Assembly (NCBI RefSeq): GCF_000014785.1
Contig: NC_008340.1
Span: 2,610,001 to 2,642,000 of the forward strand
Length of the DNA: 32,000 nt
Direction of reading: 5' to 3'
DNA from: Alkalilimnicola ehrlichii MLHE-1
GTDB taxonomy: Bacteria > Pseudomonadota > Gammaproteobacteria > Nitrococcales > Halorhodospiraceae
Shown: positions 1,544-16,433 of the stretch, in pieces
How the letters are laid out: every line of letters begins with the position of its first letter
Position numbering within the stretch: position 1 is the stretch's first letter
The notes under the pieces: model-generated
Told to the model about the DNA's origin: nothing
The model's input: the letters and a program-made list of their open reading frames with translations, nothing else
Database searches by the model: none
Position numbers and translations under genes: made by a program

Positions 1544-2193
1544 CGGTGGGGGCACCCCCCGTCATCGTGATGAGTGCAGGCCCTCCCCCCGGCATCGCGA
1601 GGGCCGAAGGCCCGTGGCGATCCAAGGCGGTAGACTGCCACGTCGGCTTCGCCTCCTCGCAGTGACGGTGTGGGCAACACCCCCCGTCATCGCGAGGGCC
1701 GAAGGCCCGTGGCGATCCAAGGCGGTAGACTGCCGCGTCGGCTTCGCCTCCTCGCAGTGACGGTGTGGGCAACACCCCCCGTCATCGCGAGGGCCGAAGG
1801 CCCGTGGCGATCCAAGGCGGTAGACTGCCACGTCGGCTTCGCCTCCTCGCAGTGACGGTGGGGTAACACCCCCGTCATCGCGAGGGCCGAAGGCCCGCGG
1901 CGATCCAGGGCGGTAGACTGCCACGTCGGCTTCGCCTCCTCGCAGTGACGGTGGGGGCAACACCCCCCGTCATCGCGAGGGCCGAAGGCCCGCGGCGATC
2001 CAGGGCGGTAGACTGCCACGTCGGCTTCGCCTCCTCGCAGTGACGGTGGGGGCGGATCCGCGCTCGCAGTGACGGTGGGGGCCACCACCACCCCGTCCTC
2101 GCGATGACAGGGGTGTTGCCCCCTCCCCGTCCTCGCGAGGAGCGCCCCCTCCCCCCGTCATCGCGAGGAGCGCAGCGACGTGGCGATCCACAC
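1536..2193 (+). repeat. Hairpin-repeat array A1: 5 full about 94-bp units plus degenerate 3'-arm and type-B units
   Basis: GTCATCGCGAGGGCCGAAGGCCCG starts at 1686, 1781, 1874 and 1969 (period 93-95). An earlier unit lies at about 1587-1670. The tail CCGTCATCGCGAGGAGCGCAGCGACGTGGCGATCCACAC ends near 2193. Confidence 0.92.
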
Positions 2194-2294
2194 GTCAGCC
2201 AAAACACAACGGCATCGGCATCAACACATATCGTCGCGTTATGCGCCAAACACGATACTATTGATTTATGCCTCATAGCACATAAACTATCATC

Positions 2295-2546
2295 ATGATC
2301 GATCTCGCCCGCACGCCGAAGCAGGTCGGCAACCTCATCCGTCGAAGCCGGAAGCAACAGGGCCTTACCCAACAAGCGCTTGGGGCGAAGGCCGGTTACC
2401 GGCAGGAGACCATCTCGCTCATCGAGAATGGCCATCCGGCCGCCAAGCTGGAAACCCTCCTGGCTATCCTCGCCGCGCTCGATCTCGAACTCCGGATCGC
2501 ACCACGCTCCAAGGGAAGCGCCGCTGACATCGAGGACCTCTTCTGA
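2295..2546 (+). CDS. hipB: XRE-family HTH antitoxin, HipB-like (83 aa)
   Basis: HTH core QQGLTQQALGAKAGYRQETISLIENG. Its stop overlaps the hipA start (TGATG). An AT-rich leader lies upstream (2216-2294). Confidence 0.8.
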   Translation: MIDLARTPKQVGNLIRRSRKQQGLTQQALGAKAGYRQETISLIENGHPAAKLETLLAILAALDLELRIAPRSKGSAADIEDLF

Positions 2547-3859
2547 TGCCCCGGCGTCGGCGCCACCCTCCGCTACACGTCCTGCTGAACAACCGCCACG
2601 TCGGCCAGCTCCAAAAGGCGGTGGACGGTGCAATCAGTTTTACCTACGAGCAAAACTGGCTGGACTGGGACCACGCCCTACCCGTCTCGCTCTCCCTTCC
2701 CCTCCGCGAAGACCCCTACCGGGGTGCACCGGTGGCGGCAGTGTTCGACAACCTCCTGCCCGATGCCGAGCCGCTCCGCCGCCGCGTTGCCGAGCGCGTT
2801 GGCGCCGAGGGCACCGACGCCTACAGCCTGCTCTCAGCCATCGGCCATGATTGCGTCGGTGCCCTGCAATTCGTCGGCCCCGACGCCCCGGCCCCCGGCG
2901 ACACCACCCAAATTTCCGGCCAGGTCATTGACGAGGACGACATCGGGAGGCTGCTCCGGGGGCTGGCCCAGGCCCCACTGGGGCTGGACCGCGACGAGGC
3001 ATTCCGGATCTCCATTGCCGGGGTGCAGGAGAAGACCGCCCTGCTCCGGCATGAAGGCCGCTGGCTAAAACCCCACGGCACAACCCCGACCAGCCACATC
3101 CTCAAGCCTCAGATCGGCCAGTTGCCGAACGGCATCGACCTGTCCAACAGCGTCGAGAACGAATACTACTGCCTCAAACTGGCTGCCGCCTTCGGGTTGC
3201 CCGTCAACAGGGCCGAGATCCACACCTTTGGGCCCACCCAAGCACTCGTCGTCGAGCGCTTCGATCGCCACTGGACCCACGACGGCCGCCTGCTCAGACT
3301 CCCGCAGGAGGACTGCTGCCAGGCCCTATCCGTCCCGCCAACACGCAAGTACCAGACCGAGGGTGGCCCCGGTATCGTGCAACTTCTTGAACTGCTCAAC
3401 GGCAGCGACACCCCGGCCAAAGACCAGGCGACCGTCTTCAAGGCACAGATCTTCTTCTGGCTGATCGGCGCTACCGACGGGCACGCAAAGAACTTCAGCC
3501 TGTTTCTGCGGCCACAGGGCGCGTTTCGCCTGACCCCGCTGTACGACATCCTGACCGTCCAGCCGAGCCTTGCCGGCCGGCAAATCGAACGCAAGCAGAT
3601 GAAACTGGCCATGGCCGTGGGGCGCGGAAACCGCTACCGGATCCATGAAATCCAGGGCCGCCATTTCCTACAGACCGGCGCCGCCGCCCGCCTGCCGCGC
3701 ACCTTGGCCACCAACGTCATCGAGGACATAGTGACCCGCGCGGACAACGCCATCACGCAGGTCGAAAGCGCCTTGCCCCCCGACTTCCCCCCGGCAATCC
3801 ACGAAAGCGTGAAGGCGGCCATCGCCGGGCGCCTGGGGGTATTGCAGAGGGCGGGGTGA
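2546..3859 (+). CDS. hipA: HipA-family serine/threonine kinase toxin (437 aa), apparently intact
   Basis: Motifs ISIAGVQEKTALL, catalytic-loop-like GATDGHAKNFSLF and LTPLYDILT. The length matches HipA and the gene is coupled to hipB. Confidence 0.9.
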   Translation: MPRRRRHPPLHVLLNNRHVGQLQKAVDGAISFTYEQNWLDWDHALPVSLSLPLREDPYRGAPVAAVFDNLLPDAEPLRRRVAERVGAEGTDAYSLLSAIGHDCVGALQFVGPDAPAPGDTTQISGQVIDEDDIGRLLRGLAQAPLGLDRDEAFRISIAGVQEKTALLRHEGRWLKPHGTTPTSHILKPQIGQLPNGIDLSNSVENEYYCLKLAAAFGLPVNRAEIHTFGPTQALVVERFDRHWTHDGRLLRLPQEDCCQALSVPPTRKYQTEGGPGIVQLLELLNGSDTPAKDQATVFKAQIFFWLIGATDGHAKNFSLFLRPQGAFRLTPLYDILTVQPSLAGRQIERKQMKLAMAVGRGNRYRIHEIQGRHFLQTGAAARLPRTLATNVIEDIVTRADNAITQVESALPPDFPPAIHESVKAAIAGRLGVLQRAG

Positions 3860-3864
3860 GTGAA

Positions 3865-4296
3865 GGCTTCCCCCCGTCATCGCGAGGGCCGGAGGCCCGT
3901 GGCGATCCAGAGCGGTAGACTGCCACGTCGGCTTCGCCTCCTCGCAGTGACGGTGGGGGCGATTTTCCGCTTCCGGCACAGTCAAGTTCTTCAAGAGAGG
4001 GCCGGAGGCTTTCCCCCCCGTCATCGCGAGGGCCGAAGGCCCGTGGCGATCCAGGGCGGTAGACTGCCGCGTCGGCTTCGCCTCCTCGCAGTGACGGTGG
4101 AGGTAGCCTGCCGCTTCCTGCACCGCCCAGTTGTTCAAGAGTCCCGTAGGGGCGTGGCAGTTCAGGGCGGCGGGTGGATCGCCGCGTCGCTGCGCTCCTC
4201 GCGATGACGGGGAGGGGCTGCGCTCCTCGCGATGACGGGGAGGTGCTGCGCTCCTCGCGATGGCGGGGAGGGGCTGCGGGCCTCGCAATGGCGGGG
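3865..4296 (+). repeat. Hairpin-repeat array A2: 2 full units, two copies of a 37-bp insert module, then inverted type-B and short units
   Basis: Full units at about 3871-3958 and 4015-4098. TTCCGCTTCCGGCACAGTCAAGTTCTTCAAGAG sits at 3960-3997 with a diverged copy at 4099-4141. Reversed GGATCGCCGCGTCGCTGCGCTCCTCGCGATGACGGGG is followed by 28-bp reiterations to about 4296. Confidence 0.9.
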
Positions 4297-4437
4297 TGGT
4301 GGTGCTTTGGGCATCGCGGGGGCGGGGGCGTTTGCGGCGCGGAGGATGGTGCTATGATGCTCATAAGGTCGTGCATTTTTAGTATAAAATAGCTATATAG
4401 TGCACTTTTTCCGATCGCTCTACGGAGAACGAGCCCA

Positions 4438-5559
4438 ATGAAAAAGAAGAACACCCTCACCACCCCCCTCATGCTTTCAGGACTGCTGGTCGGCTCTGCC
4501 TTCACCCTGAGCGGGTGCGTGAGCAGTTCCTCCAGCAGTGGGGACGACGCCACCGGCCCGCAGCATGACAGCCAAGGCGTGTTTGCCGCCGGGGCGCCGC
4601 TGAATAACGAGCAGGAGCTCGACGACGTCATCGCAGCGGCCAACCGGGCCGTCGGCGAGGACGGGGTTGAGCAATTCCTTGATGAGTTGGAAGGTGCAAT
4701 CTTCGTCAAGAGCGTCGATGTGGCCGGTGCCTCGACCACCGATGACGCCGATCGCACCACGGCAGCCCGCGACCGGCTGCGCGAGCGTGCCGGCAGGTGG
4801 CGCCAGGAGGACGCACCGGACCGGGTCATCGCCGCCACCGTCCAGCAGGACGACTGCCCCAACGGCGGCCATATCGTCATCACCAGTGACAGCACCGAAA
4901 ACGACCGTTACGAGCGCTGGGATACCACCGTGGCGTTCCACGGCTGCGCGGTGAACACGCCCTCCTGGGGTGACGTGGTGGTGAACGGGCAGCTCGACGA
5001 AACCTGGGAGGAGTCCTGGGGCGATGAAAACTTCGAGAACTACTCCGTCCACTTCGATATCACCGGCAGCGCCGCCGGGGGTGATCTGGTCCTCTCCGGC
5101 GAGGAACACTGGGGCATCCGCGCTCGGTCGGGCGACGTTTTCTTCAGCGAGCAGGTCCGCATCCCGCGGCTCGAGTTCCTGGCCGGCGAGCACTACATCG
5201 GGTTCCTGGACGTGGACCTGAACTACGTGGAGCGAGAGGTGGAGGAGCAGGGGACCACCCGGTACCCCTACGAAGACCACTGGAGCGGTCGCATCGGCAC
5301 CTCCGGCATGCAGGGCCACATCGCGCTGGATACCCCGAAAACCGTCGCCGGGCCGAACTACGATGCCTGCCCCACAGAGGGCGAGTTGACCATCAGCGGC
5401 AATGGCACCGCCTCCGTGCTCTTCGGGATGGACACCGGCATCTCCAACGCAGAAGTCGCCCTGGTGATCAACAACGCGCTCAGCCAAACCTGGGATGACT
5501 GCGACGACTTCTTCGACGAGTTCGACCTGCTCGAAGGCATCTTCCACGGCGGCCTGTAA
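4438..5559 (+). CDS. Hypothetical acidic lipoprotein (373 aa)
   Basis: Signal peptide with lipobox MKKKNTLTTPLMLSGLLVGSAFTLSGC followed by a Ser-rich linker. GGAGAA RBS upstream. No family recognised. Confidence 0.7.
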   Translation: MKKKNTLTTPLMLSGLLVGSAFTLSGCVSSSSSSGDDATGPQHDSQGVFAAGAPLNNEQELDDVIAAANRAVGEDGVEQFLDELEGAIFVKSVDVAGASTTDDADRTTAARDRLRERAGRWRQEDAPDRVIAATVQQDDCPNGGHIVITSDSTENDRYERWDTTVAFHGCAVNTPSWGDVVVNGQLDETWEESWGDENFENYSVHFDITGSAAGGDLVLSGEEHWGIRARSGDVFFSEQVRIPRLEFLAGEHYIGFLDVDLNYVEREVEEQGTTRYPYEDHWSGRIGTSGMQGHIALDTPKTVAGPNYDACPTEGELTISGNGTASVLFGMDTGISNAEVALVINNALSQTWDDCDDFFDEFDLLEGIFHGGL

Positions 5560-5575
5560 GCCCACCTCAGCACCC

Positions 5576-5599
5576 GGCCCCGGGGGGTTCCCCGGGGCC
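5576..5599 (+). terminator. GC-rich hairpin downstream of the lipoprotein gene (possible terminator, no U-tract)
   Basis: GGCCCCGGGG-GGTT-CCCCGGGGCC, a perfect 10-bp stem 17 nt after the TAA stop. No T-run follows, so an intrinsic-terminator role is uncertain. Confidence 0.35.
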
Positions 5600-5654
5600 C
5601 GTGCCGACACCCTCACCGCATTCCAGCCTCAGTCCGGTACCGGTTCAACGGTCG

Positions 5655-5792
5655 CTATCGCCGCCGCGGCGGCCAGGCCAGGCTGAAGTCCCCGTCGTTA
5701 AAGGCCACCGGCAGGTCGGTCTCGTTCAGTCCGCCCACCGCCTGGTAGCGCTCGCGACGGACCACGAGACAGGCGGCGGTCACCGCCCAGTC
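5655..5792 (-). pseudogene. Internal fragment of a family-2 glycosyltransferase (45 codons between two stops)
   Basis: The minus-strand translation DWAVTAACLVVRRERYQAVGGLNETDLPVAFNDGDFSLAW matches the conserved GT2 block (xxACLxVRRxxxxxVGGxxExxxVAxNDxDxxL). It has no start and is bounded by TAG on both sides. Confidence 0.45.
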
Positions 5793-5840
5793 CTAGCACC
5801 ACGCCCCCGTGCTGCGGGCGCTGCACAAGGGGTGGCCGGG

Positions 5841-6227
5841 ATGATCAGCGTATCCATCGTCAGCCACCGCCACGGCACCATGGTGGCCCGGCTGGTCGAC
5901 GCCCTGCTGGCCCTGCCGGAGGTGGGTCAGGTGGTGCTCACCCTCAACCGCCCGGACTGGGTGGCGGGCCTGTTCATCCTGGTGCGGGCACCGGCCTACC
6001 AGGCGGTGGGCGGCTTCGACGAGGACTACTTCCTCCACTACGAAGACGTGGGCCTCTGCGCCCGCCTCTGGGCCGCCGGCCACCCGGTCGCCCTGGACTG
6101 CAACGTCAGCATCAGCCACGACGCCCAATACCGCAGCCACCGGGACCCCATCCACTTCCTCTGGCACGTCGGCAGCCTACTGCGCTACCTCCGCAAACAC
6201 CAAGGCGGCGCCCGCCGCCCGCAGTAA
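5841..6227 (+). pseudogene. Family-2 glycosyltransferase with a large internal deletion (128 aa left)
   Basis: The N-terminal GT2 start MISVSIVSHRHGTMVARLVDALLALPEVGQVVLTLN joins directly to the C-terminal block DWVAGLFILVRAPAYQAVGGFDEDYFLHYEDVGLCARLWAAGHPV. About 90-100 aa, including the DxD region, are missing. The stop lies in repeat-like sequence. Confidence 0.55.
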
Positions 6228-6244
6228 TCGCGGGGCACCACCTA

Positions 6245-6549
6245 CCCCGTCATCGCGAGGGCCGAAGGCTTTCTCCCCGTCATCGCGAGGGCCGAAGGCT
6301 TTCTCCCCGTCATCGCGAGGGCCGAAGGCCCGTGGCGATCCAGAGGGGTAGACTGCCACGTCGCTTCGCTCCTCGCAGTGACGGTGGGGGCGGATCCGCG
6401 CTCGCAGTGACAGTGGGGGGCGGATCCGCGCTCGCAGTGACAGTGGGGGGCCACCAACGCCCCGTCATCGCGAGGAGCGAAGCGACGCGGCGATCCACAC
6501 CCCGCCATGGACTGCCACGGCCCTACAGGGCACGCAGTGACGGTGGGCC
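6245..6549 (+). repeat. Hairpin-repeat array A3: 2 short 30-bp units, 1 full unit, 2 3'-arm units, 1 type-B unit
   Basis: CCGTCATCGCGAGGGCCGAAGGCTTTCTCC x2, then a full unit, GGCGGATCCGCGCTCGCAGTGACAGTGGGG x2, then CCGTCATCGCGAGGAGCGAAGCGACGCGGCGATCCACAC... A degenerate 3'-arm motif already begins at about 6219. Confidence 0.92.
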
Positions 6550-6606
6550 CGACACATGCCGTACAATACAAGCGTGGATGCCATACTCCCTGGGAGGCCC
6601 GGGACA

Positions 6607-6852
6607 ATGAAACAGGAAACGACCAAGATCACCATCCGTCTACCGCGACAAGACGTCGAGTTCGCCAAGGCCTACGCCAGGGCGCACGGCCTCAGCATGA
6701 CTGAAGTCATTGATCGTTACCTGCGTCGCCTGCGGGCGCTAGAGCGCCACCAGCCCAGCCCCGAACTGGACGCGATCACCGGCCTGCTGCCAGCCGACCT
6801 GGACGCTGAACAGGCGTACCGAGACCACTTAGTCGAGAAACATCGCCCGTGA
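6607..6852 (+). CDS. vapB: Ribbon-helix-helix-type antitoxin partner of the PIN toxin (81 aa)
   Basis: KITIRLPRQDVEFAKAYARAHGLSMTEVIDRYL is a typical RHH/CopG-like N-terminus. GGGAGG RBS lies at about 6591. The stop overlaps the vapC start (GTGA). ATG 6556 is an alternative start. Confidence 0.7.
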   Translation: MKQETTKITIRLPRQDVEFAKAYARAHGLSMTEVIDRYLRRLRALERHQPSPELDAITGLLPADLDAEQAYRDHLVEKHRP

Positions 6853-7250
6853 TCATGCTGGACCTGAACGTTCTTCTGGACGTTCTGCAAAAAAGGGCGC
6901 CGCATTATCAGGCATCCGCCGCCGTCCTCGAGCATGTCATCCACGGTGAAGAACAAGGCGCACTCAGCGCGCACGCAGTCACTACGGTTCACTACCTGGT
7001 GAGCCGGTACGCGACTCGCGCCGCGGCGGACGGCGCCCTGGATTGGCTTCTCCGGCACTTTCACGTGTGTGCAGTGGGCCGTGACGAACTGGAACAGGCC
7101 CGGTCCCTTGGCTGGCCCGACTTCGAGGACGCGGTTCTGGCATGTGTCGCGCAGAGTGCCGGGTGCAGCTACATCGTGACGCGAAATATCAAGGACTTCG
7201 AACGATCACCGGTAACGGCGTTAACGCCGCAGGAGTGGCTACTTCGCTGA
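6849..7250 (+). CDS. vapC: PIN-domain ribonuclease toxin VapC (133 aa)
   Basis: MLDLNVLLD (first acidic residue), WPDFEDAVLACVAQ and YIVTRNIKDF are typical PIN signatures. The gene is coupled to the upstream RHH gene. Confidence 0.85.
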   Translation: MIMLDLNVLLDVLQKRAPHYQASAAVLEHVIHGEEQGALSAHAVTTVHYLVSRYATRAAADGALDWLLRHFHVCAVGRDELEQARSLGWPDFEDAVLACVAQSAGCSYIVTRNIKDFERSPVTALTPQEWLLR

Positions 7251-7265
7251 GCTGAGTCCGAACCC

Positions 7266-7592
7266 TCCGTCATCGCGAGGGCCTCCTCCCCCGTCATCGC
7301 GAGGGCCGAAGGCTTTCCCCCCGTCATCGCGAGGGCCGAAGGCTTTCTCCCCGTCATCGCGAGGGCCGAAGGCCCGTGGCGATCCAGAGGGGTAGACTGC
7401 CACGTCGCTTCGCTCCTCGCAGTGACAGGGGGCGCACCCCCCGTCATCGCGAGGGCCGAAGGCCCGTGGCGATCCAGGGCGGTAGACTGCCACGTCGGCT
7501 TCGCCTCCTTGCAGTGACGGGGTGGCCCCTCCCCCGTCATCGCGAGGAGCGCAGCGACGCGGCGATCCATACCCCGGCATGGACTGCCACGC
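7266..7592 (+). repeat. Hairpin-repeat array A4: 3 short units, 2 full units, 1 type-B unit
   Basis: Same unit types as A3. The type-B end CCGTCATCGCGAGGAGCGCAGCGACGCGGCGATCCATACCCCGGCATGGACTGCCAC lies at about 7535-7592. Confidence 0.92.
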
Positions 7593-7666
7593 CCCTTCGT
7601 AGGCTTGCACAGCCAGTGTAAGGAACAACGGCTACGTTGAGATCAGGCCAAGGAAGACATATCATA

Positions 7667-8089
7667 ATGATAAGTCCCAAACCAAACGTAAGCGCCTTTG
7701 ATGGTTTCCCACCTACGGCGACTGAAGACCGCGCCATCCAGGGTGGGCCACTGTATCCGCCGGACACCGTGGTGGCGCTGGCGAGGGAAGAAGCGCTCGC
7801 TTTCTGGAGCCGAGGGGCTATTCGAGACGCAGAGAAGTGGGGGCTTGATGTCCCGAGCGCGTGTCAATTAGTGGTAATGGCCGTCCGGCACGGCCACTAC
7901 CTGGGCGCACAATGGTGCATCCAGGGGCCTCGCGGGCCATGGGCAGCCTGCGACGCCTACAAAGTCACGAATCACGAGTGGATCGAGCATGCCCATCGGC
8001 ACATACCGGTCACGTATTACCTGAAATTTTGTATCGCGAAGACCGGAGCAATGCTGCTTTCGGTCTCCAACCACCCGGAGGGTACCTGA
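7667..8089 (+). CDS. mqsR: MqsR-family toxin (about 140 aa)
   Basis: The C-terminal pattern ACDAYKV...YYLKFCIAKTGAMLLSVSNH parallels E. coli MqsR (WQDVYRP...VYLKITVIHDVLIVSFKE). It lies directly upstream of an MqsA-type antitoxin. AGGAAG RBS precedes ATG 7667; ATG 7637 is an alternative start. Confidence 0.7.
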   Translation: MISPKPNVSAFDGFPPTATEDRAIQGGPLYPPDTVVALAREEALAFWSRGAIRDAEKWGLDVPSACQLVVMAVRHGHYLGAQWCIQGPRGPWAACDAYKVTNHEWIEHAHRHIPVTYYLKFCIAKTGAMLLSVSNHPEGT

Positions 8090-8090
8090 C

Positions 8091-8705
8091 ATGACCCGGG
8101 GCACTCGCAACGCACTACGGCCCTGCCCCGCCTGTGGCGAGGGTCGCCTGGAGCCCAGGCAAACGACTCAGCGGGCGGAACATGCCGGCCTCAGCGAGGC
8201 AATCCCATTGCACTACGCCGTGTGCGACACCTGCGGATCCGAACTCGCAGAAGCCCCCGAGGCGAAAGCCAACAAGCGCGCCATGACCGCATTTCGCAAG
8301 CGCGCCGATGGCCTGCTCACCGGGGCGCAGATGCGGCAGGCCCGCAAAGCGCTGGGGCTTACGCAGGCGCAGGCCGCAAAGCTGTTCGGCGGCGGCCAAG
8401 TAGCCTTCTCCCGCTATGAGAACGACGACATCACGCAAAGCGAGGCCATGGACAGCCTGGTCCGCGTTTGCCTGGCCCAACCAGCCAACCTGACATTGCT
8501 GGCTGACCAAAAGGGCGTCTCAGCAATATTCACAACGGACGACAACTGGGCCAACGCACTCGTGCGGCGCCACATCCTTGGCATCAAGAGCGCCCTGGAG
8601 CACCAGATCGCCCCGGACCGCGTTGCCGAGCCAAGCCCTCAAGACCCCTTGAAGCGACACGCCAAAGTCATTGACATTCAGCGTTGGAGAAAAGCCGCAG
8701 CATGA
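8091..8705 (+). CDS. mqsA: MqsA-type antitoxin: N-terminal zinc ribbon, XRE HTH and a long C-terminal extension (204 aa)
   Basis: CPACGEG...CDTCGSE Cys4 ribbon, then LTGAQMRQARKALGLTQAQAAKLFGGGQVAFSRYENDD HTH. There are about 65-70 extra C-terminal residues relative to the 131-aa E. coli MqsA. Confidence 0.8.
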   Translation: MTRGTRNALRPCPACGEGRLEPRQTTQRAEHAGLSEAIPLHYAVCDTCGSELAEAPEAKANKRAMTAFRKRADGLLTGAQMRQARKALGLTQAQAAKLFGGGQVAFSRYENDDITQSEAMDSLVRVCLAQPANLTLLADQKGVSAIFTTDDNWANALVRRHILGIKSALEHQIAPDRVAEPSPQDPLKRHAKVIDIQRWRKAAA

Positions 8706-9139
8706 AAGCCAGCCCGCTGACCCTGCACGGGATCGAGTTCGTGCGCGTCCACGTAGAATCCGATCTCGAGGCGGAAACACGCCGTGCAGAGCAATTCCAG
8801 TTCGACGGCACCACTCTAAAGTGGGGGCTGGACCACGGTCGCGACGAGGATAACGGAACTTGGTGGGTGGCCGTTGGTTTCGGGACCCACCAAGAGGACG
8901 ACGAACCACGGTGTCCCTACATTTTGGATGTCCAGGCCGTCGGCATCGTTTCTGTCTCGGACCAGCTCCCCGAGAAAGACCACGAAAAACTCGCTTTCGA
9001 ATACGGCGCCGCCCTCGTCTACGGCGCCATTCGCGAGATGGTCACCAACATCACCGCCCGTAGCCTCGCCGGACCGCTAATGCTTCCCACGCCAAGCTTC
9101 ATCGGCGCACTGGAAACAAGAAAGCAGCCGGGCAACTGA
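8702..9139 (+). CDS. SecB-like chaperone (145 aa), third gene of a TAC-type locus
   Basis: ATGA overlap with mqsA. The pattern CPYILDVQAVGIVSV...FEYGAALVYGAIREMVTNITARSLAGPLMLPTPSF matches the SecB core (C..Q.GIF.....YP.ARE.I....SRG.FP.L.L.P.NF). Confidence 0.7.
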   Translation: MKASPLTLHGIEFVRVHVESDLEAETRRAEQFQFDGTTLKWGLDHGRDEDNGTWWVAVGFGTHQEDDEPRCPYILDVQAVGIVSVSDQLPEKDHEKLAFEYGAALVYGAIREMVTNITARSLAGPLMLPTPSFIGALETRKQPGN

Positions 9140-9160
9140 GAGACACCGCTTGCCTCCCCA

Positions 9161-9701
9161 CCCCGTCATCGCGAGGGCCGAAGGCTTTCCCCCCGTCATC
9201 GCGAGGGCCGAAGGCTTTCCCCCCGTCATCGCGAGGGCCGGAGGCCCGTGGCGATCCAGAGGGGTAGACTGCCGCGTCGGCTTCGCCTCCTCGCAGTGAC
9301 GGGGTGGCCCCTCCCCCCGTCATCGCGAGGGCCGGAGGCCCGTGGCGATCCAGGGCGGTAGACTGCCGCGTCGGCTTCGCCTCCTCGCAGTGACGGGGTG
9401 GCCCCTCCCCCCGTCATCGCGAGGGCCGGAGGCCCGTGGCGATCCAGGGCGGTAGACTGCCGCGTCGGCTTCGCCTCCTCGCAGTGACGGGGTGGCCCCT
9501 GCCCCGTCATCGCGAGGGCCGGAGGCCCGTGGCGATCCAGAGGGGTAGACTGCCGCGTCGGCTTCGCCTCCTCGCAGTGACGGGGTGGCCCCTCCCCCCG
9601 TCATCGCGAGGGCCGAAGGCCCGTGGCGATCCAGGGCGGTAGACTGCCGCGTCGGCTTCGCCTCCTCGCAGTGACGGGGTGGCCCCTCCCCCCGTCATCG
9701 C
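9161..9701 (+). repeat. Hairpin-repeat array A5: 2 short units, 5 full units, and a 6th unit cut after CCGTCATCGCA
   Basis: Full-unit starts at 9225, 9319, 9413, 9506 and 9600 (period 93-94). The last unit is truncated at 9701, where the hipB-like coding sequence begins. Confidence 0.93.
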
Positions 9702-9953
9702 AAGGGGTGGACCCAGGAAGAACTCGCTGAGCGAGTCGGCGTTGGCGTGATCACGATCCGCCGGGTTGCCAAGGGCTCCCCCCGGGTGGCCATCGGCACT
9801 TACTTTGAAGCGGCCGCACTGGTTGGGGTTTCACTGTTCACCGATGATCCGGACAGGCTCAAACGCGAGCATGCAACCCAGCAGGAACGGCTGACGCTGC
9901 TACCCAAGCGAGTCCGTCGTCAAACACCAGAGCCCCTCGACGATGATTTCTAG
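9702..9953 (+). pseudogene. 5'-truncated XRE/HipB-like antitoxin gene (N-terminus replaced by the repeat array)
   Basis: The frame reads ...KGWTQEELAERVGVGVITIRRVAKGSPRVAIGTYFEAAALVGVSL, i.e. helix 2-3 of an XRE HTH without helix 1 or a proper start. Only an internal GTG at 9747 is available. Confidence 0.6.
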
Positions 9954-10185
9954 CAACCGCGCTTATGTCTGGATCTGGCTGCCCGGCCAGACATCGCCTG
10001 TAGTAGCCGGACTTGTTGAGCGCGACGACCAAGACCGGTACCGCTTTGCCTATGGTCGGCGCTATCTGGCCCGTGAAGATGCAATCAGCCTGTATCCCGA
10101 CGAACTGCCCTGCTGTAGTCATCGCCGCCAGCGGCATGTGCGAATGACGAACCACGGCTTCCCCAGCATTTCCCTAACGGCCTGA
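9943..10185 (+). pseudogene. HipA N-terminal fragment (80 codons, homology lost after about 55 aa)
   Basis: AYVWIWLPGQTSPVVAGLVERDDQDRYRFAYGRRYLAREDAISLYPDELP is the HipA N-terminal subdomain pattern. The kinase core is absent. Confidence 0.65.
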
Positions 10186-10331
10186 AACATGCAGCAGCGG
10201 TGTTAGACTAAACCGAGGTCAAAACCCTCATCGCCACGTGGTGGATCAAAGGCCAGAACATTGCCCACGAGCCCCAGGAATACACAAGGCTCCGAGAAAA
10301 ATCGCCGTCCTCAAGAATTGCCCATGGAGAC

Positions 10332-10766
10332 ATGATGCGGACTCGAGCCCGCCCCAAAAGGAATTCCAAGCGCCGGCTACATCCTGAATTGACCGTCGAG
10401 CGGCGCCGGGCACTCGCCCAGTGTGTCAAATATGTCGGCAGCCCCTTGCACAAGCGCAACCCCGGTGATTTCGGGCTGACGCCGCCCGTTGCGGCCCGTC
10501 CCGGGAAGAGCCTGTGTGATGATGTCTCGATCTTCGAGCGAGACAAGGCTCAGGTGCTGCTGCGAGAGGGAGTGCAAGCGGGCCTTGTAAGCCGTGATGC
10601 CGACGAGGGCTTCCCGCGCCACATCTGGATGGTTCACGAAGGGCGAGTCATCGAGGCACGTTGTGACAACATGGAAGCCGGAACCTACCATGGCTACCCC
10701 CTGGAAGCCGACGATCCCATGGCCGATGCTGTAAAGCGCGAATGGAGCCGGAGGCAAGCAGAATGA
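10332..10766 (+). CDS. Hypothetical basic 144-aa protein, first gene of an unknown two-gene operon
   Basis: GGAGA RBS. Arg/Lys-rich N-terminus. Conserved-looking blocks YVGSPLHKRNPGDFGL and GTYHGYPL. Its stop overlaps the next start (ATGA). No family recognised with confidence. Confidence 0.6.
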   Translation: MMRTRARPKRNSKRRLHPELTVERRRALAQCVKYVGSPLHKRNPGDFGLTPPVAARPGKSLCDDVSIFERDKAQVLLREGVQAGLVSRDADEGFPRHIWMVHEGRVIEARCDNMEAGTYHGYPLEADDPMADAVKREWSRRQAE

Positions 10767-12097
10767 GCGATACCCTGCGATTCGACTGGGAGTGGCTGGC
10801 CTACCCAGAATTGCCTGCTGAAGAGGCTGTGACCTTTGCTGACCTGAGCATCCGGCTCAACGACAAGGCCATGACTCGCCTCTACGACGTGGCCGCCAAG
10901 ACCGAGCGCGACAACCTTTTCGCTGCCGCGTACCCGTTGGCTCAATTTCTAGCGGAAAACTGGTGGCGCATCCGCTGGGAGCCCGCGCCGGCCAGTCTTT
11001 CAAACGCGGGGCCACAGTGGCGTCTGGCGCATAACATCGCAGCCGCTGGTGCCGGCTATGTCTGGCCCAACATCACCTTCCACGGCGATGGCGAGCGGAT
11101 GTTCATGCACGTCGGACCCCACACCTCTGAGTCCTCCGCCGTGCAGTTCGTCTCGGAGGGAAATGGTGTGCTCGACGCCGCAATGTTCGAAGCAGAGGCC
11201 GATCGTTTCATGGAAGGCGTCTTGGCCCGACTGCAAGCCTGTGGCCACCCGGATACGGAGCTCGAACAGCTCTGGCGAGCGGTCCAGGCCGAGCGTTCCA
11301 GCAACGAAGACTGTGAGCGGCGGCGGCTGGAGGCCATGGCGGGCTTCGATCCCGACGAAGCGCCAGAGGCCATGCTGGACGAACTGTTGCAGCTCGAACA
11401 GCGCCTTGGGGTTTCAGCCATCCGAGAATTGGCTGCGGCCTCGCGGGCAAACACACTGGACCATGTGCGAACCCTGGAAGAGGCACTTTGTGCTCGGGGC
11501 CTTCGGTATCAGGTCCCGGATACGAGTCGAATGAGGATTGAATGGCCTGCCCCGCCATGGCGCAGGGCTGTCGAAGTCGCAAAGGCCGCTCGACAGGCCT
11601 GGGGCCTGAACAATGGCCCACTGGATAACACGCAGCTCGCCGCCATCGTGGATCTACCGCGCGAGCAGCTTGACTCTTCGGCACCTGAAGCAGTGCCCTA
11701 CAGCGCGAGCCTGCGCGGGGGGGAAGAGGGCGACAGACTAGTGTTCAGAACCGGCCATCGGCACGGACGCCGCTTCGCAATCGGTCGCCTGATGGGTGAC
11801 GCCTTCTACTCACCCGGGGAAGGGGGGGCACTGGCGGCCGCAACGGATGCCCGGACGGGACGCCAGAAGTTTCAGCGGGCCTTCGCGCAGGAGCTGCTGT
11901 GCCCATTCGAGGCATTGAGCGACTTTCTCAACCTGGGCCAGGACTGGGATGCATGTGACGATATCACCCCCCCGAACGAGGACCGCATCGAAGAGGCAGC
12001 GGAGTATTTCGACGTCTCACCGGTGCTCGTTCAGAGCACGCTTGTCAACCACAACGTCTTGCCCCGCGACGTACTCGAAATAACGGACGCCGCCTGA
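10763..12097 (+). CDS. Hypothetical 444-aa protein whose C-terminal region resembles an ImmA/IrrE (M78) domain lacking the HExxH motif
   Basis: GGAGG lies 8 nt upstream of ATG 10763. N-terminal block AAAYPLAQFLAENWWRIRWEP. The C-terminal GRRFAIGRLMGDAF...RQKFQRAFAQELLCPFEAL aligns with the M78 pattern RRFTLAHELGHLL...E.EANRFAAELLMP. Confidence 0.65.
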   Translation: MSDTLRFDWEWLAYPELPAEEAVTFADLSIRLNDKAMTRLYDVAAKTERDNLFAAAYPLAQFLAENWWRIRWEPAPASLSNAGPQWRLAHNIAAAGAGYVWPNITFHGDGERMFMHVGPHTSESSAVQFVSEGNGVLDAAMFEAEADRFMEGVLARLQACGHPDTELEQLWRAVQAERSSNEDCERRRLEAMAGFDPDEAPEAMLDELLQLEQRLGVSAIRELAAASRANTLDHVRTLEEALCARGLRYQVPDTSRMRIEWPAPPWRRAVEVAKAARQAWGLNNGPLDNTQLAAIVDLPREQLDSSAPEAVPYSASLRGGEEGDRLVFRTGHRHGRRFAIGRLMGDAFYSPGEGGALAAATDARTGRQKFQRAFAQELLCPFEALSDFLNLGQDWDACDDITPPNEDRIEEAAEYFDVSPVLVQSTLVNHNVLPRDVLEITDAA

Positions 12098-12121
12098 GAA
12101 CCCGAGGAGCCAAACAACACA

Positions 12122-12619
12122 CTGTCATCGCGAGGGCCGAAGGCTTTCCCCCGTCATCGCGAGCCCCCCACCCCGCTGCGCGGGCCCGAATCAACGAGGA
12201 ACGGGGCACCCCCGGTCATCGCGAGGGCCGAAGGCCCGTGGCGATCCAGGGCGGTAGACTGCCGCGTCGGCTTCGCCTCCTCGCAGTGACGGTGGGGGCG
12301 ACTTTCCGCTTCCGGCACAGTCAAGTTCTTCAAGAGGGCCGAAGGCCCGTGGCGATCCAGGGCGGTAGACTGCCACGTCGGCTTCGCCTCCTCGCAGTGA
12401 CGGGGTGGCCCCTCCCCCCGTCATCGCGAGGGCCGAAGGCCCGTGGCGATCCAGAGGGGTAGACTGCCACGTCGGCTTCGCCTCCTCGCAGTGACGGTGG
12501 GGATGGGGCCCCGCTCGCAGTGACGGTGTGGATGGGCCCCCGCTCGCAGTGACGGTGGGGGCGGGTCCGCTCCTCGCGGTGACGGTGGGGGCGGGTCCAC
12601 GCTTGCAGTGGCGATGAGG
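12122..12619 (+). repeat. Hairpin-repeat array A6: 1-2 short units, 3 full units (one carrying the 37-bp insert module), 4 3'-arm units
   Basis: Full units lie between about 12214 and 12495. TTCCGCTTCCGGCACAGTCAAGTTCTTCAAGAG is at 12300-12337. Reiterated GCTCGCAGTGACGGTGKGG-type units run from 12496 to 12619. Confidence 0.92.
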
Positions 12620-12648
12620 CACCACCACCCAAAAAGGAGAACACCACC

Positions 12649-14031
12649 ATGGACGACCCCACCCTCCTCCACCACGGCGGCGCTGACGGCGTCACCGGCA
12701 GTTGCCACCAACTCTACGCCAGCCCCGACCACTCACTCCTCATCGACTGCGGCCTCTTCCAAGGCGAAGACGCCGGCCCCGACCCCCTCGCCCAACACAC
12801 CGTCGACTTCGACGTCGACACCCTCCAGGCCCTCGTCCTCACCCACGTCCACATCGACCACGTCGGCCGGCTGCCCTACCTGCTGGCCGCCGGCTACCGC
12901 GGCCCCATCCTCTGCAGCCACCCCTCCGCCCACCTGCTGCCGCTGGTCATTGACGACGCCCTGCGCATCGGCTTCACCCGTGACGGCCAACTCATCGCGC
13001 GCTTCCAGCAGCAGGTCCAAAACCAACTGACCCCCCTCAAATACAGCCGCTGGCACACCGTCACCGACAACCGCCACCTCACCCTCAAGGTCCGCCTGGA
13101 GCGCGCCGGCCACATCCTCGGCTCCGCCTACGTCAAAGTCGCCATCCGGGACAAACGCACCGGCCGCACACACCGCACCGTCTTCTCAGGCGACCTGGGC
13201 GCCCCCGGCTCGCCGCTGCTGCCCGCCCCGCAATCGCCCCACCACGCCGACCTCCTCGTCCTGGAGGCCACCTACGGCGACCGCAGCCACGAAAACCGCG
13301 ACCAGCGCCGCCACCGCCTGCGCCAGGCCATCGAACACGCCGTGCAGGACGGCGGCACCGTCATCATCCCCGCCTTCAGCATCGGCCGCACCCAGGTGCT
13401 GCTCCACGAGCTGGAAGCGCTCACCCACACCGCCCAAGGCCCCTGGCGCCACCTGCGCATCATCGTCGACTCCCCCCTGGCCGCCCGCTTCAACCGCGTC
13501 TACCGCCGCCTGAAACCCTACTGGGACCAAGAGGCCAGAAAACGGGCCCGACAAGGCCGCCACCCCCTCAACTTCAGCCGCCTGCACACCGTCGACAGCC
13601 ACGCCCAACACCAACACACCGTCACCACCCTGGCCCAGGGCGGCCACCCGGCCGTGGTCATCGCCGCCAGCGGCATGTGCGCCGGCGGCCGCGTCGTCAA
13701 CTACCTGAAAGCCATGCTCGGCGACCCACGCCACCACGTGCTGTTCGTCGGCTACCAAGCGGAAGGCACCCCCGGGCGGGACATCCAGCGCTACGGCCCA
13801 ACCGGCGGCTGGGTAGACCTGGACGGAGAACGGTTCGACATCCGCGCCGGCGTCACCACCATCGGCGGCTACTCCGCCCATGCAGACCAACAGGACCTAC
13901 TGCGGTTCGTACAACAGATGAAGCGCCCACCCGGCACCATCCGACTGGTGCACGGCAGCGCCCGCGCCCGGGAGACACTGGCCAACGCCCTCACCCGGCA
14001 GGGCCATACCGTGACCCAGGGAGGGTCATGA
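12649..14031 (+). CDS. Beta-CASP family metallo-beta-lactamase-fold nuclease (RNA-metabolising MBL hydrolase), 460 aa
   Basis: AAAGGAGAA RBS. LLIDCGLFQG, HxHxDH motif LTHVHIDHVGRLPYL, later SGDLG, IPAFSIGRTQ, GYSAHADQ and RLVHGS, typical of beta-CASP enzymes. Confidence 0.85.
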   Translation: MDDPTLLHHGGADGVTGSCHQLYASPDHSLLIDCGLFQGEDAGPDPLAQHTVDFDVDTLQALVLTHVHIDHVGRLPYLLAAGYRGPILCSHPSAHLLPLVIDDALRIGFTRDGQLIARFQQQVQNQLTPLKYSRWHTVTDNRHLTLKVRLERAGHILGSAYVKVAIRDKRTGRTHRTVFSGDLGAPGSPLLPAPQSPHHADLLVLEATYGDRSHENRDQRRHRLRQAIEHAVQDGGTVIIPAFSIGRTQVLLHELEALTHTAQGPWRHLRIIVDSPLAARFNRVYRRLKPYWDQEARKRARQGRHPLNFSRLHTVDSHAQHQHTVTTLAQGGHPAVVIAASGMCAGGRVVNYLKAMLGDPRHHVLFVGYQAEGTPGRDIQRYGPTGGWVDLDGERFDIRAGVTTIGGYSAHADQQDLLRFVQQMKRPPGTIRLVHGSARARETLANALTRQGHTVTQGGS

Positions 14032-14076
14032 CTTCAGAGGCCCGGCACTCCCGCCACGGCGGGGCCCCGCCCCCTC

Positions 14077-14399
14077 CCCCGTCACTGCGAGCGCCGAAGG
14101 GGCGTGACAGTCCATACGGCGTGTGGATCGCCGCGTCGCTTCGCTCCTCGCGATGACGGGGGCGGCGCCCCCACCGTCACCGCGAGAGCGGACCCGCCCC
14201 CACCGTCACTGCGGGCGGGGGCCCATCCACACCGTCACTGCGAGGAGGCGAAGCCGACGTGGCAGTCTACCCCTCTGGATCGCCACGGGCCTTCGGCCCT
14301 CGCGATGACGGGGGAAAGCCTTCGGCCCTCGCGATGACGGGGGAAAGCCTTCGACCCTCGCGATGACGGTGAGAAAGCCCTCGGCCCTCACGATAACGG
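14077..14399 (-). repeat. Hairpin-repeat array A7, inverted orientation: type-B, 3 3'-arm units, 1 full unit, 4 short units as read on the + strand
   Basis: Reverse complements of all unit types are present, e.g. GGAGGCGAAGCCGACGTGGCAGTCTACCCCTCTGGATCGCCACGGGCCTTCGGCCCTCGCGATGACGGGGG and GAAAGCCTTCGGCCCTCGCGATGACGGGG reiterated. Confidence 0.9.
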
Positions 14400-14514
14400 A
14401 AGCACCACCCCCAACTAATCCTTCCGATAGGTTGCACCGCACCATCCCCCATGCTTTACTCCCTAACATCGTTCACCCAGTGAACGACACAACCCTTCGC
14501 ACCCCCCAAGGATG

Positions 14515-14560
14515 GCCGTGCCACCGCATGTCATCCTTGCGGTAGCGTGCCCGAAAGCCG
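14515..14560 (+). repeat. Left copy of the 46-bp direct repeat flanking the ATPase/DUF4276 module
   Basis: GCCGTGCCACCGCATGTCATCCTTGCGGTAGCGTGCCCGAAAGCCG, 45/46 identical to 16355-16400. Confidence 0.9.
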
Positions 14561-14657
14561 GCACCAGGATATGAAAGCAGACGGCTCCCAAACGACATGC
14601 GACAAGGTTTTGGGACCCTACACGTATTGAGGCACACCGAATGAAGGGACTGATTCA

Positions 14658-15788
14658 ATGACATCGGAATCGGACCTGTGTAGCCGAATTTCACGCGTGA
14701 GCATCCGCGGGTTCCGTAGCCTAGCCTGTGTCGAGAACCTTGAGCTCCCGCAACTAGCGGTCCTGATTGGGGCAAACGGATCGGGCAAATCCAACCTCAT
14801 CCGATTCTTCGAGATGCTGAGCTACTCGCTCAAGGGCCGGAACCTTCAGCAGTTCGTGATCGAAAAAGGGGGCGGTGACGACCAGCTCTTTTTCGGAGCG
14901 CGGACCACGTCCCGCCTGGAAGCAGAGATCGCGCTGGAGACTGAGCAGGGCACCAATGAGTACCGGATGGCCCTGACCCACGTCGCACCAGACTCCCTGG
15001 CCTTCGCCGAAGAGGCTTTCCGGTTCTCCCGGCACGACCGCGAAGGCAGCAGCGACTGGATTCACCTCCCCATGCCGGCTCAGGAATCGGGCCTGCCGGT
15101 GGCCGCAGCGGATAGTGGTCAGCGGTCGCGGCGCACAGCACGCACGCTCCTTTACCTGCTGCGCAACTGCGCCACCTTCCAGTTTCATGACACCTCGGCA
15201 AAGGCCAGTCTGAACATGCGCTGGGATGAGAGCGAAAACGCACGCATGCGCTCGGATGGCGGAAACCTGGCCCCCATACTGCTGCATCTTTCTCAGGAGC
15301 ATCCCCGGCGTTACCGGCTCATCACGCGGCAGATTCAACGCGTTCTCCCCGTGTTCGAAGACTTCGACCTGCAATCGACGGGGGGCAAGGTGTTGCTGCG
15401 CTGGCGCGCCCGAAACAGCGACAACACCTTCGGGCCGCATCTGACATCGGACGGCTCGCTGCGACTGTTTTGCCTATTCACCCTGCTCAATCTGCCGGGG
15501 GAAATGCTCCCGGACGTACTCATGATCGACGAACCGGAACTGGGCCTTCATCCGCACGCTATCGCCCTGACCGCCGATATGCTCAAGAGCCTCTCCGTCC
15601 ATCGGCAAGTCTTCATCGCCACCCAGTCACCACTGATGGTCGACGCCTTCGACGTGGATAACATCCTCGTCGCCAGCCTGAAAGACGGCGCAACAGACCT
15701 GACGCCCATGGACCGTGACGAATACCGGGTCTGGCTTGAAAGCGGCTACCAGCCCTCGGATCTATGGCTCAAAGAACCGGTGGGCTGA
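14658..15788 (+). CDS. AAA_21/ABC-type (SMC-like) ATPase, 376 aa, defence-associated type
   Basis: Walker A LIGANGSGKSNL close to the N-terminus, distal Walker B LLMIDEPELGLHP and signature-like TSDGSLR. This split-ABC architecture is typical of OLD/AbiL/PARIS-type ATPases. Confidence 0.85.
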   Translation: MTSESDLCSRISRVSIRGFRSLACVENLELPQLAVLIGANGSGKSNLIRFFEMLSYSLKGRNLQQFVIEKGGGDDQLFFGARTTSRLEAEIALETEQGTNEYRMALTHVAPDSLAFAEEAFRFSRHDREGSSDWIHLPMPAQESGLPVAAADSGQRSRRTARTLLYLLRNCATFQFHDTSAKASLNMRWDESENARMRSDGGNLAPILLHLSQEHPRRYRLITRQIQRVLPVFEDFDLQSTGGKVLLRWRARNSDNTFGPHLTSDGSLRLFCLFTLLNLPGEMLPDVLMIDEPELGLHPHAIALTADMLKSLSVHRQVFIATQSPLMVDAFDVDNILVASLKDGATDLTPMDRDEYRVWLESGYQPSDLWLKEPVG

Positions 15789-15791
15789 GTG

Positions 15792-16354
15792 ATGAGTTCC
15801 AGTGTTCGATTGCTTGTGGTCTGCGAGGGACAGACAAGGGCGGAGGAAACGTCAACATCGAGCGACTGGCTATCCACCTGGCCAACGAATACCCCAACCA
15901 TGACTTTGTCACCACGTTGGTCGACCTCTACGGGTTCAGTGACCGGGAAGGACGAAGTCGGACAGAGCTTGAAGAGGCCATCCGCGAAGCCGTCCTAAGC
16001 CGTCGTCGAGACATTCAGACGGATAGAGTCATCCCGTATGTGCAGCAGTATGAATTCGAAGCGCTGCTGTTCAGCGATATTCAGGGTTTTCAATGGGTGG
16101 TTGATGGCTGGTCCACTGGGGCAGAGCGCCAACTTCAGAGCATCGTCGATAATTACTCGGACCCCGAGCAAATCAACGACAACCCGACCACCGCGCCCTC
16201 GAAACGCCTGGAAGCCATCTTCCGCGGTTACTATCGGAAGACCGAACATGGCCCGATCATTGCCGAAGAAATCGGGTTGGCAGTGATCCGCAGTCAGTGC
16301 CCAGGCTTCGACGGTTGGATAACCAAACTGGAAGGCCTTAATCGACCGCGTTAA
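15792..16354 (+). CDS. DUF4276-family (TOPRIM-like) protein interrupted by an apparent single-base frameshift near 15849-15851
   Basis: The N-terminal hallmark MSSSVRLLVVCEGQTRAEET is in frame 3 (15792-15851). The rest, VNIERLAIHLANEYPNHDFVTTLVDLYGF...EFEALLFSD...PSKRLE, is in frame 2 to TAA 16354. The only frame-2 ATG (15764) overlaps the ATPase gene and lacks the VxCEGxTE block. Confidence 0.7.
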
Positions 16355-16400
16355 GCCGTGCCACCGCATGTCATCCTTGCGGTAGCGTGCTCGAAAGCCG
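16355..16400 (+). repeat. Right copy of the 46-bp direct repeat, starting immediately after the DUF4276 stop
   Basis: GCCGTGCCACCGCATGTCATCCTTGCGGTAGCGTGCTCGAAAGCCG. Confidence 0.9.
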
Positions 16401-16433
16401 ACCCCACACGTCACCGGGGGCCCCACACCCTCA

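Follow-up and report, generated by a model that had tools for sequence, protein, structure and literature searches.

The closest described systems to the locus considered here are the MqsRA-type toxin-antitoxin-chaperone (TAC) loci of Vibrio cholerae and Escherichia coli. In V. cholerae RC385 control of the MqsRA toxin requires its SecB-TA chaperone (Bordes et al. 2016, PMC5105189), and residues 136-176 of the antitoxin, Vcho-MqsA, constitute a transferable chaperone-addiction (ChAD) segment (PMC5105189). The MqsRAC system of E. coli C496_10 protects against phage T2, and this protection is abolished by extra MqsC (PMC9519451, PMC10783111). Here we analyze a locus of Alkalilimnicola ehrlichii MLHE-1 located at positions 7667-9139 of a 32,000-nt stretch of contig NC_008340.1, which we call the window. 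The original prediction placed this locus in the known TAC class of the MqsR/MqsA/SecB type, and the MqsA family scores, the predicted folds, the synteny and the homology with Vibrio and E. coli loci agree with that assignment. We consider it highly probable that the locus is an intact tripartite MqsRA-type TAC operon. No literature pairing A. ehrlichii with SecB was found, the supplement of Sala et al. 2013 lying outside that search.

The locus consists of three co-directional open reading frames (ORFs) on the + strand, tightly packed in the toxin-antitoxin-chaperone order expected of a TAC operon, with a gap of 1 nt between the first two and an ATGA overlap between the last two. Its features are the following:

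7650..7656, + strand: Shine-Dalgarno-like AAGGAAG, 10 nt 5' of the toxin ATG
7667..8089, + strand: toxin gene, from ATG 7667 to TGA 8089, 140 aa, with a conserved N-terminal extension of ~28 residues and a predicted MqsR-fold domain
8077..8081, + strand: Shine-Dalgarno GGAGG within the 3' end of the toxin gene, 9 nt 5' of the antitoxin ATG
8091..8705, + strand: antitoxin gene of the MqsA family, from ATG 8091 to TGA 8705, 204 aa, beginning 1 base past the toxin TGA
8124..8495, + strand: MqsA core, antitoxin residues 12-135, zinc ribbon and XRE-type helix-turn-helix (HTH)
8496..8702, + strand: C-terminal extension, antitoxin residues 136-204, candidate ChAD segment, with the conserved islands I165..L169 and V-x-D-I-Q-R-W199-R-K-A-A-A
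8686..8689, + strand: GGAG Shine-Dalgarno of the chaperone gene, made by the antitoxin W199-R200 codons (TGG AGA)
8702..8705, + strand: ATGA overlap of the antitoxin stop and the chaperone start, read from the sequence and kept in at least 8 of 9 loci
8702..9139, + strand: SecB-like chaperone gene, from ATG 8702 to TGA 9139, 145 aa, predicted four-stranded sheet, long helix and short C-terminal helix

The ORF coordinates and the sequence agree with the three tightly coupled genes that had been predicted, and the ATGA overlap implies translational coupling of antitoxin and chaperone. For the toxin, ATG 7667 was preferred over TTG 7637 as the start because all homologues open with M-[IV]-x-x-x-N-V-S. 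The antitoxin ORF has the 204 aa stated originally, against 131-133 aa in the solved E. coli MqsA (the prediction gave about 131), and the tail quoted there corresponds exactly to antitoxin residues 132-204.

With respect to the Vibrio system, the gene order and gene sizes of Vcho-TAC are those of the A. ehrlichii locus, and the antitoxin extension begins at the same residue (136-176 for the Vcho ChAD; 136-204 in the window). The sequences were compared with a Vibrio-type relative (L013), which is not RC385 itself since its DNA differs from the published primers; its toxin begins MVNNAIN, as encoded by the RC385 cloning primer (VCRC385_03678/03679 locus). The L013 toxin is 45% identical to the window toxin, the antitoxin core is 51% identical over 133 residues, and the same palindrome, described below, is found at the toxin start. 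However, the Vibrio-type chaperone is of another lineage (22% identity over 82 residues, single-comparison E = 0.001), and the tails of the two antitoxins, of 69 residues in the window and ~41 in the Vibrio type, do not align. The E. coli comparison was made with a relative carried by a prophage of strain E2 (L030), whose identity with the C496_10 sequence is unconfirmed. Its toxin is 39% identical to the window toxin (E = 2e-32) and its antitoxin core 39% identical; the antitoxin has a long tail ending in Val-Ala, after which comes a SecB-like gene with an overlapping start, and the palindrome TTACCA-N3-TGGTAA lies on an in-frame ATG four codons 5' of the annotated toxin start. In contrast, its chaperone gave no significant BLASTP match with that of the window, and the E. 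coli locus is prophage-borne, whereas the window locus is found in a chromosomal island of a haloalkaliphile. The homology expected of an MqsRAC system is therefore present with these relatives of the published systems (toxin 39-45% and antitoxin core 39-51% identical), and that of the toxins (45% and 39%) ties the window locus to relatives of tested MqsRAC systems.

More distant likenesses were observed with other systems. The HigB1-HigA1-SecB(TA) locus of Mycobacterium tuberculosis (Rv1955-1957), the paradigm of TAC systems, presents the same gene order and a SecB-fold chaperone, whose structure 5mtw is among the top structural matches of the window protein; its HigA1 tail carries an aromatic anchor (W108, R110, Y114) and a terminal aliphatic-Ala ClpXP degron, comparable with the window candidates W199 and Ala-Ala. 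Nevertheless, HigB and HigA are unrelated to the MqsR-fold toxin and to MqsA, and neither the tails nor the chaperones show sequence similarity. The two-component MqsR/MqsA of E. coli K-12 shares with the window a homologous antitoxin core (E = 5e-8 to 3gn5) with two CxxCG motifs, an HTH and Arg101, and the toxin gene also comes first. The K-12 MqsA operator is likewise a palindrome with a 3-nt spacer, with the half-site AACCT instead of the TTAYCA of the window clade. K-12 MqsRA lacks the chaperone and the tail (131 vs 204 aa), and its toxin, of 98 aa, uses a Lys56/Tyr81 chemistry. In E. coli HigBAC and CmdTAC (Mets et al. 2024 preprint; Vassallo et al. 2022/2024) control is exerted through an aromatic-motif ChAD, CmdA has an Ala-Ala degron, and a modular exchange of the toxin-antitoxin "warhead" and the chaperone "sensor" is mirrored by the window toxin-antitoxin core, which occurs with at least three SecB-like lineages. 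Their toxins differ (CmdT is an ADP-ribosyltransferase and HigB an RNase), as do their antitoxins, and there the phage trigger is known.

The antitoxin is the component most directly assigned. It scored above the curated cut-offs with Pfam MqsA_antitoxin (PF15731; 63.6 bits, cut-off 30, residues 12-131) and with NCBIfam TIGR03830 (125.1 bits, cut-off 61.8, residues 12-135), and matched the solved E. coli MqsA (3gn5; 131-133 aa) with E = 5e-8. Two CxxCG zinc motifs, C12-P-A-C15-G and C45-D-T-C48-G, and HTH_31/HTH_3 matches at residues 78-134 were also observed, which bears out the prediction of an MqsA-like antitoxin with zinc ribbon and HTH.

Since the MqsA models stop at residues 131-135 of 204, an extra tail of 69 residues past the core, which ends at about residue 135, occupies the ChAD position as anticipated. 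As described for TAC antitoxins, this C-terminal extension has no counterpart in two-component relatives, and residues 136-204 gave no family or sequence match. A long antitoxin is the rule in the clade, with 110 of the 120 closest homologues listed having at least 175 aa. The tail is variable among the nearest relatives except for the islands I165-x3-L169 and the C-terminal V-x-D-I-Q-R-W-R-K-x-x-A, and W199 is at least 90% conserved in a 24-sequence alignment. Among the 110 long homologues listed, 53 end in Ala (25 in Ala-Ala and 10 in Val-Ala) and 60 carry a Trp within the last 9 residues. The window antitoxin ends in W-x3-5-Ala, like the ClpXP degron described for other TAC antitoxins: terminal Val-Ala in M. 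tuberculosis HigA1 and Ala-Ala in CmdA are ClpXP degrons (bioRxiv 10.1101/2024.02.24.581848), and aromatic residues of the ChAD anchor the chaperone, as do W108, R110 and Y114 in M. tuberculosis (PMC6377645). By analogy, W199 is a candidate chaperone anchor and A203-A204 a candidate ClpXP degron. It should be noted that the terminal Ala is not forced by the ATGA overlap, because the latter only requires a last codon ending in A. The Trp-Arg/Lys codons that act as Shine-Dalgarno are at 8685-8690 in the window and at the same position in loci L001-L009, L024 and L026, and here the constraints on protein and on translation are confounded.

The third protein is SecB-like, as had been claimed, at the level of predicted structure. 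Its AlphaFold2 model (29 homologues; pLDDT 89, pTM 0.85) presents the layout of SecB, with four long strands, a long helix and a short C-terminal helix. A Foldseek search of the PDB returned as best 19 matches only SecB proteins of E. coli and Haemophilus influenzae or the M. tuberculosis SecB-TA with ChAD peptide (5mtw), with E from 9e-7 to 5e-5 and TM of 0.5-0.68. We thus take the SecB fold as that of the predicted model, and the absence of such a fold, which would have spoken against the original prediction, was not observed. The sequence searches gave less. The score with Pfam SecB (PF02556) was 18.2 bits, under the cut-off of 26; the SecB equivalogs (TIGR00809, NF004392/3) gave 13.1-14.7 bits against cut-offs of 102.8-180; phmmer found no match in the PDB; the family profile reached H. 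influenzae SecB with E = 0.025; and there was a weak PADLOC match to the CmdC model. Even so, the identical protein of A. ehrlichii MLHE-1 (100%) is named "protein-export chaperone SecB" at NCBI. Membership of the export-chaperone equivalog is unsupported and this name is an over-annotation, as the original prediction had warned for genes of this kind; the same naming occurs in E. coli.

The toxin could not be read from sequence families. No match was found in Pfam, NCBIfam or PADLOC, nor in the PDB by phmmer; family profiles of 24 and 117 sequences gave none in the PDB, and an hhalign comparison of the 24-sequence profile with MqsR had a probability of 3%. With Pfam MqsR (PF15723, gathering threshold 26.2 bits) the window protein had no match and its best relative reached 16.9 bits, while sub-threshold contacts with Pfam MqsR_toxin, in one consistent register, were seen for 4 of 24 relatives and for the toxin of locus L028. 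The predicted structure (AlphaFold2, pLDDT 91) had MqsR 3hi2 as top Foldseek match in the PDB (probability 1.0, TM 0.62-0.65 on the target, E = 4.5e-3). The order of secondary-structure elements (helix, strand, helix, helix, four strands) is the one that we take to be that of MqsR. The 117-sequence profile aligned with E. coli MqsR over 90 columns (hhalign E = 2.5e-4, probability 43%), an alignment of low confidence. In it, Tyr81 of MqsR falls on Y118, which is conserved, and Lys83 on K120, which is invariant; Trp67, Asp69 and Tyr71 correspond to W92, D96 and Y98, Gln68 and Lys96 to C95 and H136, and Lys56 to the variable G80. MqsR strictly requires two residues, Lys56 and Tyr81 (PMC9636575), of which the window toxin thus retains the second and lacks the first at the aligned position.

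The nearly invariant residues of the toxin are W83, C84, C95, D96, Y98, K120, S134 and H136, and the conserved N-terminal extension of ~28 residues is absent from MqsR. It belongs to an unannotated family of ~135-150 aa with 409 clusters at 50% identity (E <= 1e-3), whose members are named "hypothetical protein" in NCBI records, including those of 9 plasmids and 3 phages. We conclude that the toxin, as modelled, is probably an MqsR-fold protein with a remodelled active site and not an MqsR at the Pfam level; an RNase activity would be expected of it. The claim of an MqsR-like toxin consequently stands for the predicted fold and a weak profile-profile match, and does not stand for sequence families. 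Of the searches suggested with it, the HMM comparison placed MqsA above the cut-offs, left SecB sub-threshold and gave no MqsR family match.

The arrangement is not peculiar to A. ehrlichii. In all nine complete related genome loci (from Arhodomonas, Ectothiorhodospira, Rhodoferax, Nitrosospira, Comamonadaceae, Burkholderiaceae, Limnohabitans and an unclassified proteobacterium) the toxin-antitoxin-chaperone order is kept with near-identical spacing, and the ATGA overlap in at least eight, the ninth having a chaperone start miscalled automatically. The TAC architecture is therefore conserved across gamma- and betaproteobacteria. A SecB-like gene follows the extended close MqsA relatives in every locus examined, and the same toxin-antitoxin core is joined to at least three very divergent SecB-like lineages, which fits the published idea of exchangeable chaperone/ChAD modules.

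Other observations concern the setting and the decay of these loci. In L013 and L029 the TAC genes are directly after HsdS, of type I restriction-modification, and in L028 after HsdM; L030 is in the immunity region of a lambdoid E. coli prophage, and the antitoxin of the L028 type was found on more than 1000 contigs. In L010, L011, L012 and L023, from Thioalkalivibrio spp. and a soda-lake metagenome, antitoxin residues 1-~80 are followed directly by chaperone residues ~99-142, and none of these four loci gave a toxin match. Such decayed copies look like the product of an internal deletion that took out the HTH and the tail along with most of the chaperone. In Aromatoleum bremense (L024/L025) antitoxin and chaperone are intact and the toxin is a remnant; the toxin region contains two ORFs of 41-42 aa in one assembly and, in the other, an ORF of 97 aa with epimerase-family matches.

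Another aspect to mention is the regulation of the operon. Two features overlap at the toxin start:

7659..7673, no strand assigned: operator-like palindrome ATATCA-TAA-TGATAA, centred on the toxin start codon, with the family consensus TTAYCA-N3-TGRTAA
7637..7665, + strand: sigma-70-like promoter match TTGAGA-17-TATCAT, 10/12, uncertain

The palindrome is the single site of its consensus in the window at no more than 1 mismatch (expected 0.03). Each of 19 related loci contains exactly one perfect copy, which coincides with the toxin start in those where its position was examined. Its arms covary, TTATCA/TGATAA being found with Met-Ile and TTACCA/TGGTAA with Met-Val; it takes in the toxin start and the second codon and seems to constrain the first three toxin codons. 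The layout is that of the E. coli MqsA operator, AACCT-N3-AGGTT (PMC4894380). In the window antitoxin, R108 corresponds to Arg101 of E. coli MqsA and Val104 to Asn97. Both E. coli residues are, we assume, base-contacting, and the change of Asn97 to Val104 would be compatible with a different operator half-site. We propose, from these sequence patterns, that the palindrome may be the operator of the TAC operon. The promoter match is uncertain: the left arm of the palindrome serves as its -10 hexamer, so that transcription would start past the ATG; as operon promoter, positions 7637-7665 were therefore set aside. Hexamers resembling -35 at 17 nt were also seen by eye in L001 and L015. No intrinsic terminator was found downstream of the chaperone gene.

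The surroundings of the locus are also relevant. Positions 1-16,600 of the window form an island of cassettes, after which comes a polysaccharide-biosynthesis cluster, and the GC content of the TAC locus showed no deviation from that of the window. The island contains, besides the TAC locus:

within 1-16,600: ParA-like ATPase
2546-3859: full-length HipA kinase toxin in a repeat-bounded cassette (HipA_C E = 2e-54, Couple_hipA E = 5e-27)
4438-5559 and 5601-6227: two sizeable ORFs without Pfam or PADLOC match, in repeat-bounded cassettes
6556-7250: VapBC-like pair in its own cassette upstream of the TAC locus, a DUF6364 protein of 98 aa (E = 2e-16) and a PIN protein of 133 aa (PIN_3 E = 1.5e-20) with a 4-nt overlap
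7259..7596, no strand assigned: upstream boundary, palindromic repeat block with the core CCGTCATCGCGAGG, separating the TAC locus from the VapBC-like cassette and not part of the former
9154..9710, no strand assigned: downstream boundary, block of the same repeats with periods of 30 and ~94 nt
9747-12097: ORFs without family match
12649-14031: beta-CASP metallo-beta-lactamase-fold protein
14658-16354: HEC-01 candidate defence pair, an AAA_21 ATPase of 376 aa and a DUF4276 protein of 196 aa (PADLOC E = 6e-110 and 2e-141)

The HEC-01 pair supports a defence-island context. Within 9747-12097, two sizeable ORFs of repeat-bounded cassettes, 10332-10766 and 10742-12097, share 25 nt, have no Pfam or PADLOC match and resemble a module of two genes; no support was obtained for ORF 9943-10185 as a hipA remnant. 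In A. bremense the TAC genes are inserted among polysaccharide-biosynthesis genes, and the island of the window also abuts such a cluster (17-32 kb).

Copies of CCGTCATCGCGAGG with no more than 1 mismatch number 42 in the window (expected 0.06), all before nt 16,574 and none past 16.6 kb. They are grouped in tandem blocks (1589-2168, 3874-4266, 6247-6475, 7267-7547, 9163-9705, 12122-12585, 14146-14369 and 16532-16574) that occupy nearly every gap between the toxin-antitoxin and defence cassettes. The repeat units are of ~94 nt and form imperfect hairpins of ~85 nt (as DNA, -28 kcal/mol, z = -2.1); they yield many spurious ORFs, with translations of the type "...PRDDG..." and "...ALAMTG...". 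The repeats were absent from the 29 related loci examined and had no Rfam family match, and on these grounds they were rejected as a TAC component. They are a feature of the host and look like REP/MITE-like elements that delimit cassettes.

Several results weigh against the assignment of the locus as an MqsRA-type TAC operon, or against parts of it. The toxin is under every family threshold and the SecB-like protein is below those of both Pfam and NCBIfam. The essential Lys56 of MqsR aligns with the non-conserved G80, so the chemistry of the toxin may differ from that of MqsR. Given a chaperone with 22% identity over 82 residues and tails that cannot be aligned, function is transferred from the Vibrio system by analogy of architecture and not by close homology. 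In most loci the W199 codon and the following purine-rich codon double as the Shine-Dalgarno of the chaperone gene, which provides a second possible cause for the conservation of the Trp; L008 keeps the Trp away from the Shine-Dalgarno position, which argues for an additional role in the protein. Finally, the single promoter-like site is at odds with the start codon, and what suggests a phage-defence role is confined to context and the E. coli precedent.

It might be thought, given the NCBI name and the SecB fold of the third protein, that the locus is an ordinary two-component MqsRA-like module beside an independent SecB paralogue, in which the antitoxin suffices and the third gene encodes a general or export chaperone sharing the transcript. 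This we regard as very improbable, because the ATGA coupling is kept across families and orders, the protein reaches 13-15 bits where the SecB equivalogs require 103-180, the extended close MqsA relatives always have a SecB-like gene next to them in all the loci examined, and two tested relatives control their toxin only with the chaperone (PMC5105189, PMC9519451). A different question is whether, within the same TAC architecture, the toxin is a distinct enzyme built on an MqsR/RelE-like scaffold, with a His/Asp/Cys site and possibly another substrate or ribosome dependence. Such an enzyme would account for the lack of an MqsR family match, for the variable position aligned with the essential Lys56 (PMC9636575), for the replacement of Lys96 and Gln68 by the nearly invariant His136 and Cys95, for the 28-residue extension and for the modest Foldseek match (E = 4.5e-3). 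We hold it to be unlikely, since MqsR is the top fold match in the PDB, Tyr81 and Lys83 have conserved or invariant counterparts in Y118 and K120, and the N-terminal domain of the partner MqsA is the known MqsR-binding module. The order of secondary-structure elements, presumably that of MqsR, goes in the same direction, and the literature already names the Vibrio and E. coli TAC toxins MqsR.

With the locus taken as an MqsRA-type TAC operon, its function can be considered. By analogy with the described systems, the toxin would be a ribonuclease that arrests translation, and the N-terminal zinc domain of the antitoxin would bind and neutralise it. The tail would make the antitoxin aggregation-prone and expose the C-terminal Ala-Ala degron to ClpXP unless a SecB-like tetramer binds the tail, in which case the system may be one of chaperone addiction. 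When the chaperone is available, the antitoxin would hold the toxin, and the antitoxin dimer would repress the operon at the start-codon palindrome. Unfolded clients could titrate the chaperone away; a phage structural protein is the more probable titrant, as it is in E. coli HigBAC, CmdTAC and MqsRAC. Once the chaperone is withdrawn, the antitoxin would be lost and the toxin released, leading to dormancy or abortive infection. A role in phage defence may be suggested on the same analogy. The context consists of an island with HipA, the PIN/VapBC-like pair and HEC-01, and of relatives that neighbour type I restriction-modification genes or are carried by a lambdoid prophage, by 9 plasmids and by 3 phages. 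Alternatively, the TAC could be a stress-responsive or island-stabilising addiction module and not a phage sensor, as proposed for M. tuberculosis HigBA1-SecB-TA. The locus is chromosomal and within an array of toxin-antitoxin cassettes (HipA, PIN/VapBC-like), and the original TAC literature ties chaperone availability to folding and export stress (PMC3581621, PMC5105189), so this is possible; we find it doubtful as the role of the locus, because E. coli MqsRAC, HigBAC and CmdTAC defend against phages by chaperone titration (PMC9519451; bioRxiv 10.1101/2024.02.24.581848), the island also holds a HEC-01 candidate defence pair, and relatives occur next to restriction-modification genes of type I and within a prophage. 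It should be added that stress and phage roles are not mutually exclusive.

Beyond the class of the locus, we would give roughly even chances to a joint proposal: that the palindrome is the operator of this MqsA clade, that the 140-aa toxins are an MqsR-fold family without Pfam model and with a His/Asp/Cys site, and that their core has been recombined with at least three SecB-like/ChAD modules. If this were true, the N-terminus of the toxin (Met-Ile or Met-Val, then a codon beginning with A) would be dictated by the repressor site, with repression at the coding start, and the chaperone lineage of the window would be an uncharacterised sensor. The start-codon operator is a small, testable regulatory feature. 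These additions (a divergent chaperone lineage, a start-codon operator and a toxin family without a model) are modest; they extend a known class and leave the field unchanged. TAC systems are now known as phage-defence modules with the chaperone as sensor, and one toxin-antitoxin core with divergent chaperone and tail modules fits the scheme of a "warhead plus exchangeable sensor" and supplies natural chimeras. In relatives of A. ehrlichii, in E. coli, on plasmids and in phages the chaperone is entered as "protein-export chaperone SecB" and the related toxins as "hypothetical protein", so that TAC loci of the MqsRA type are invisible to keyword or Pfam surveys, and the toxin family merits a model of its own.

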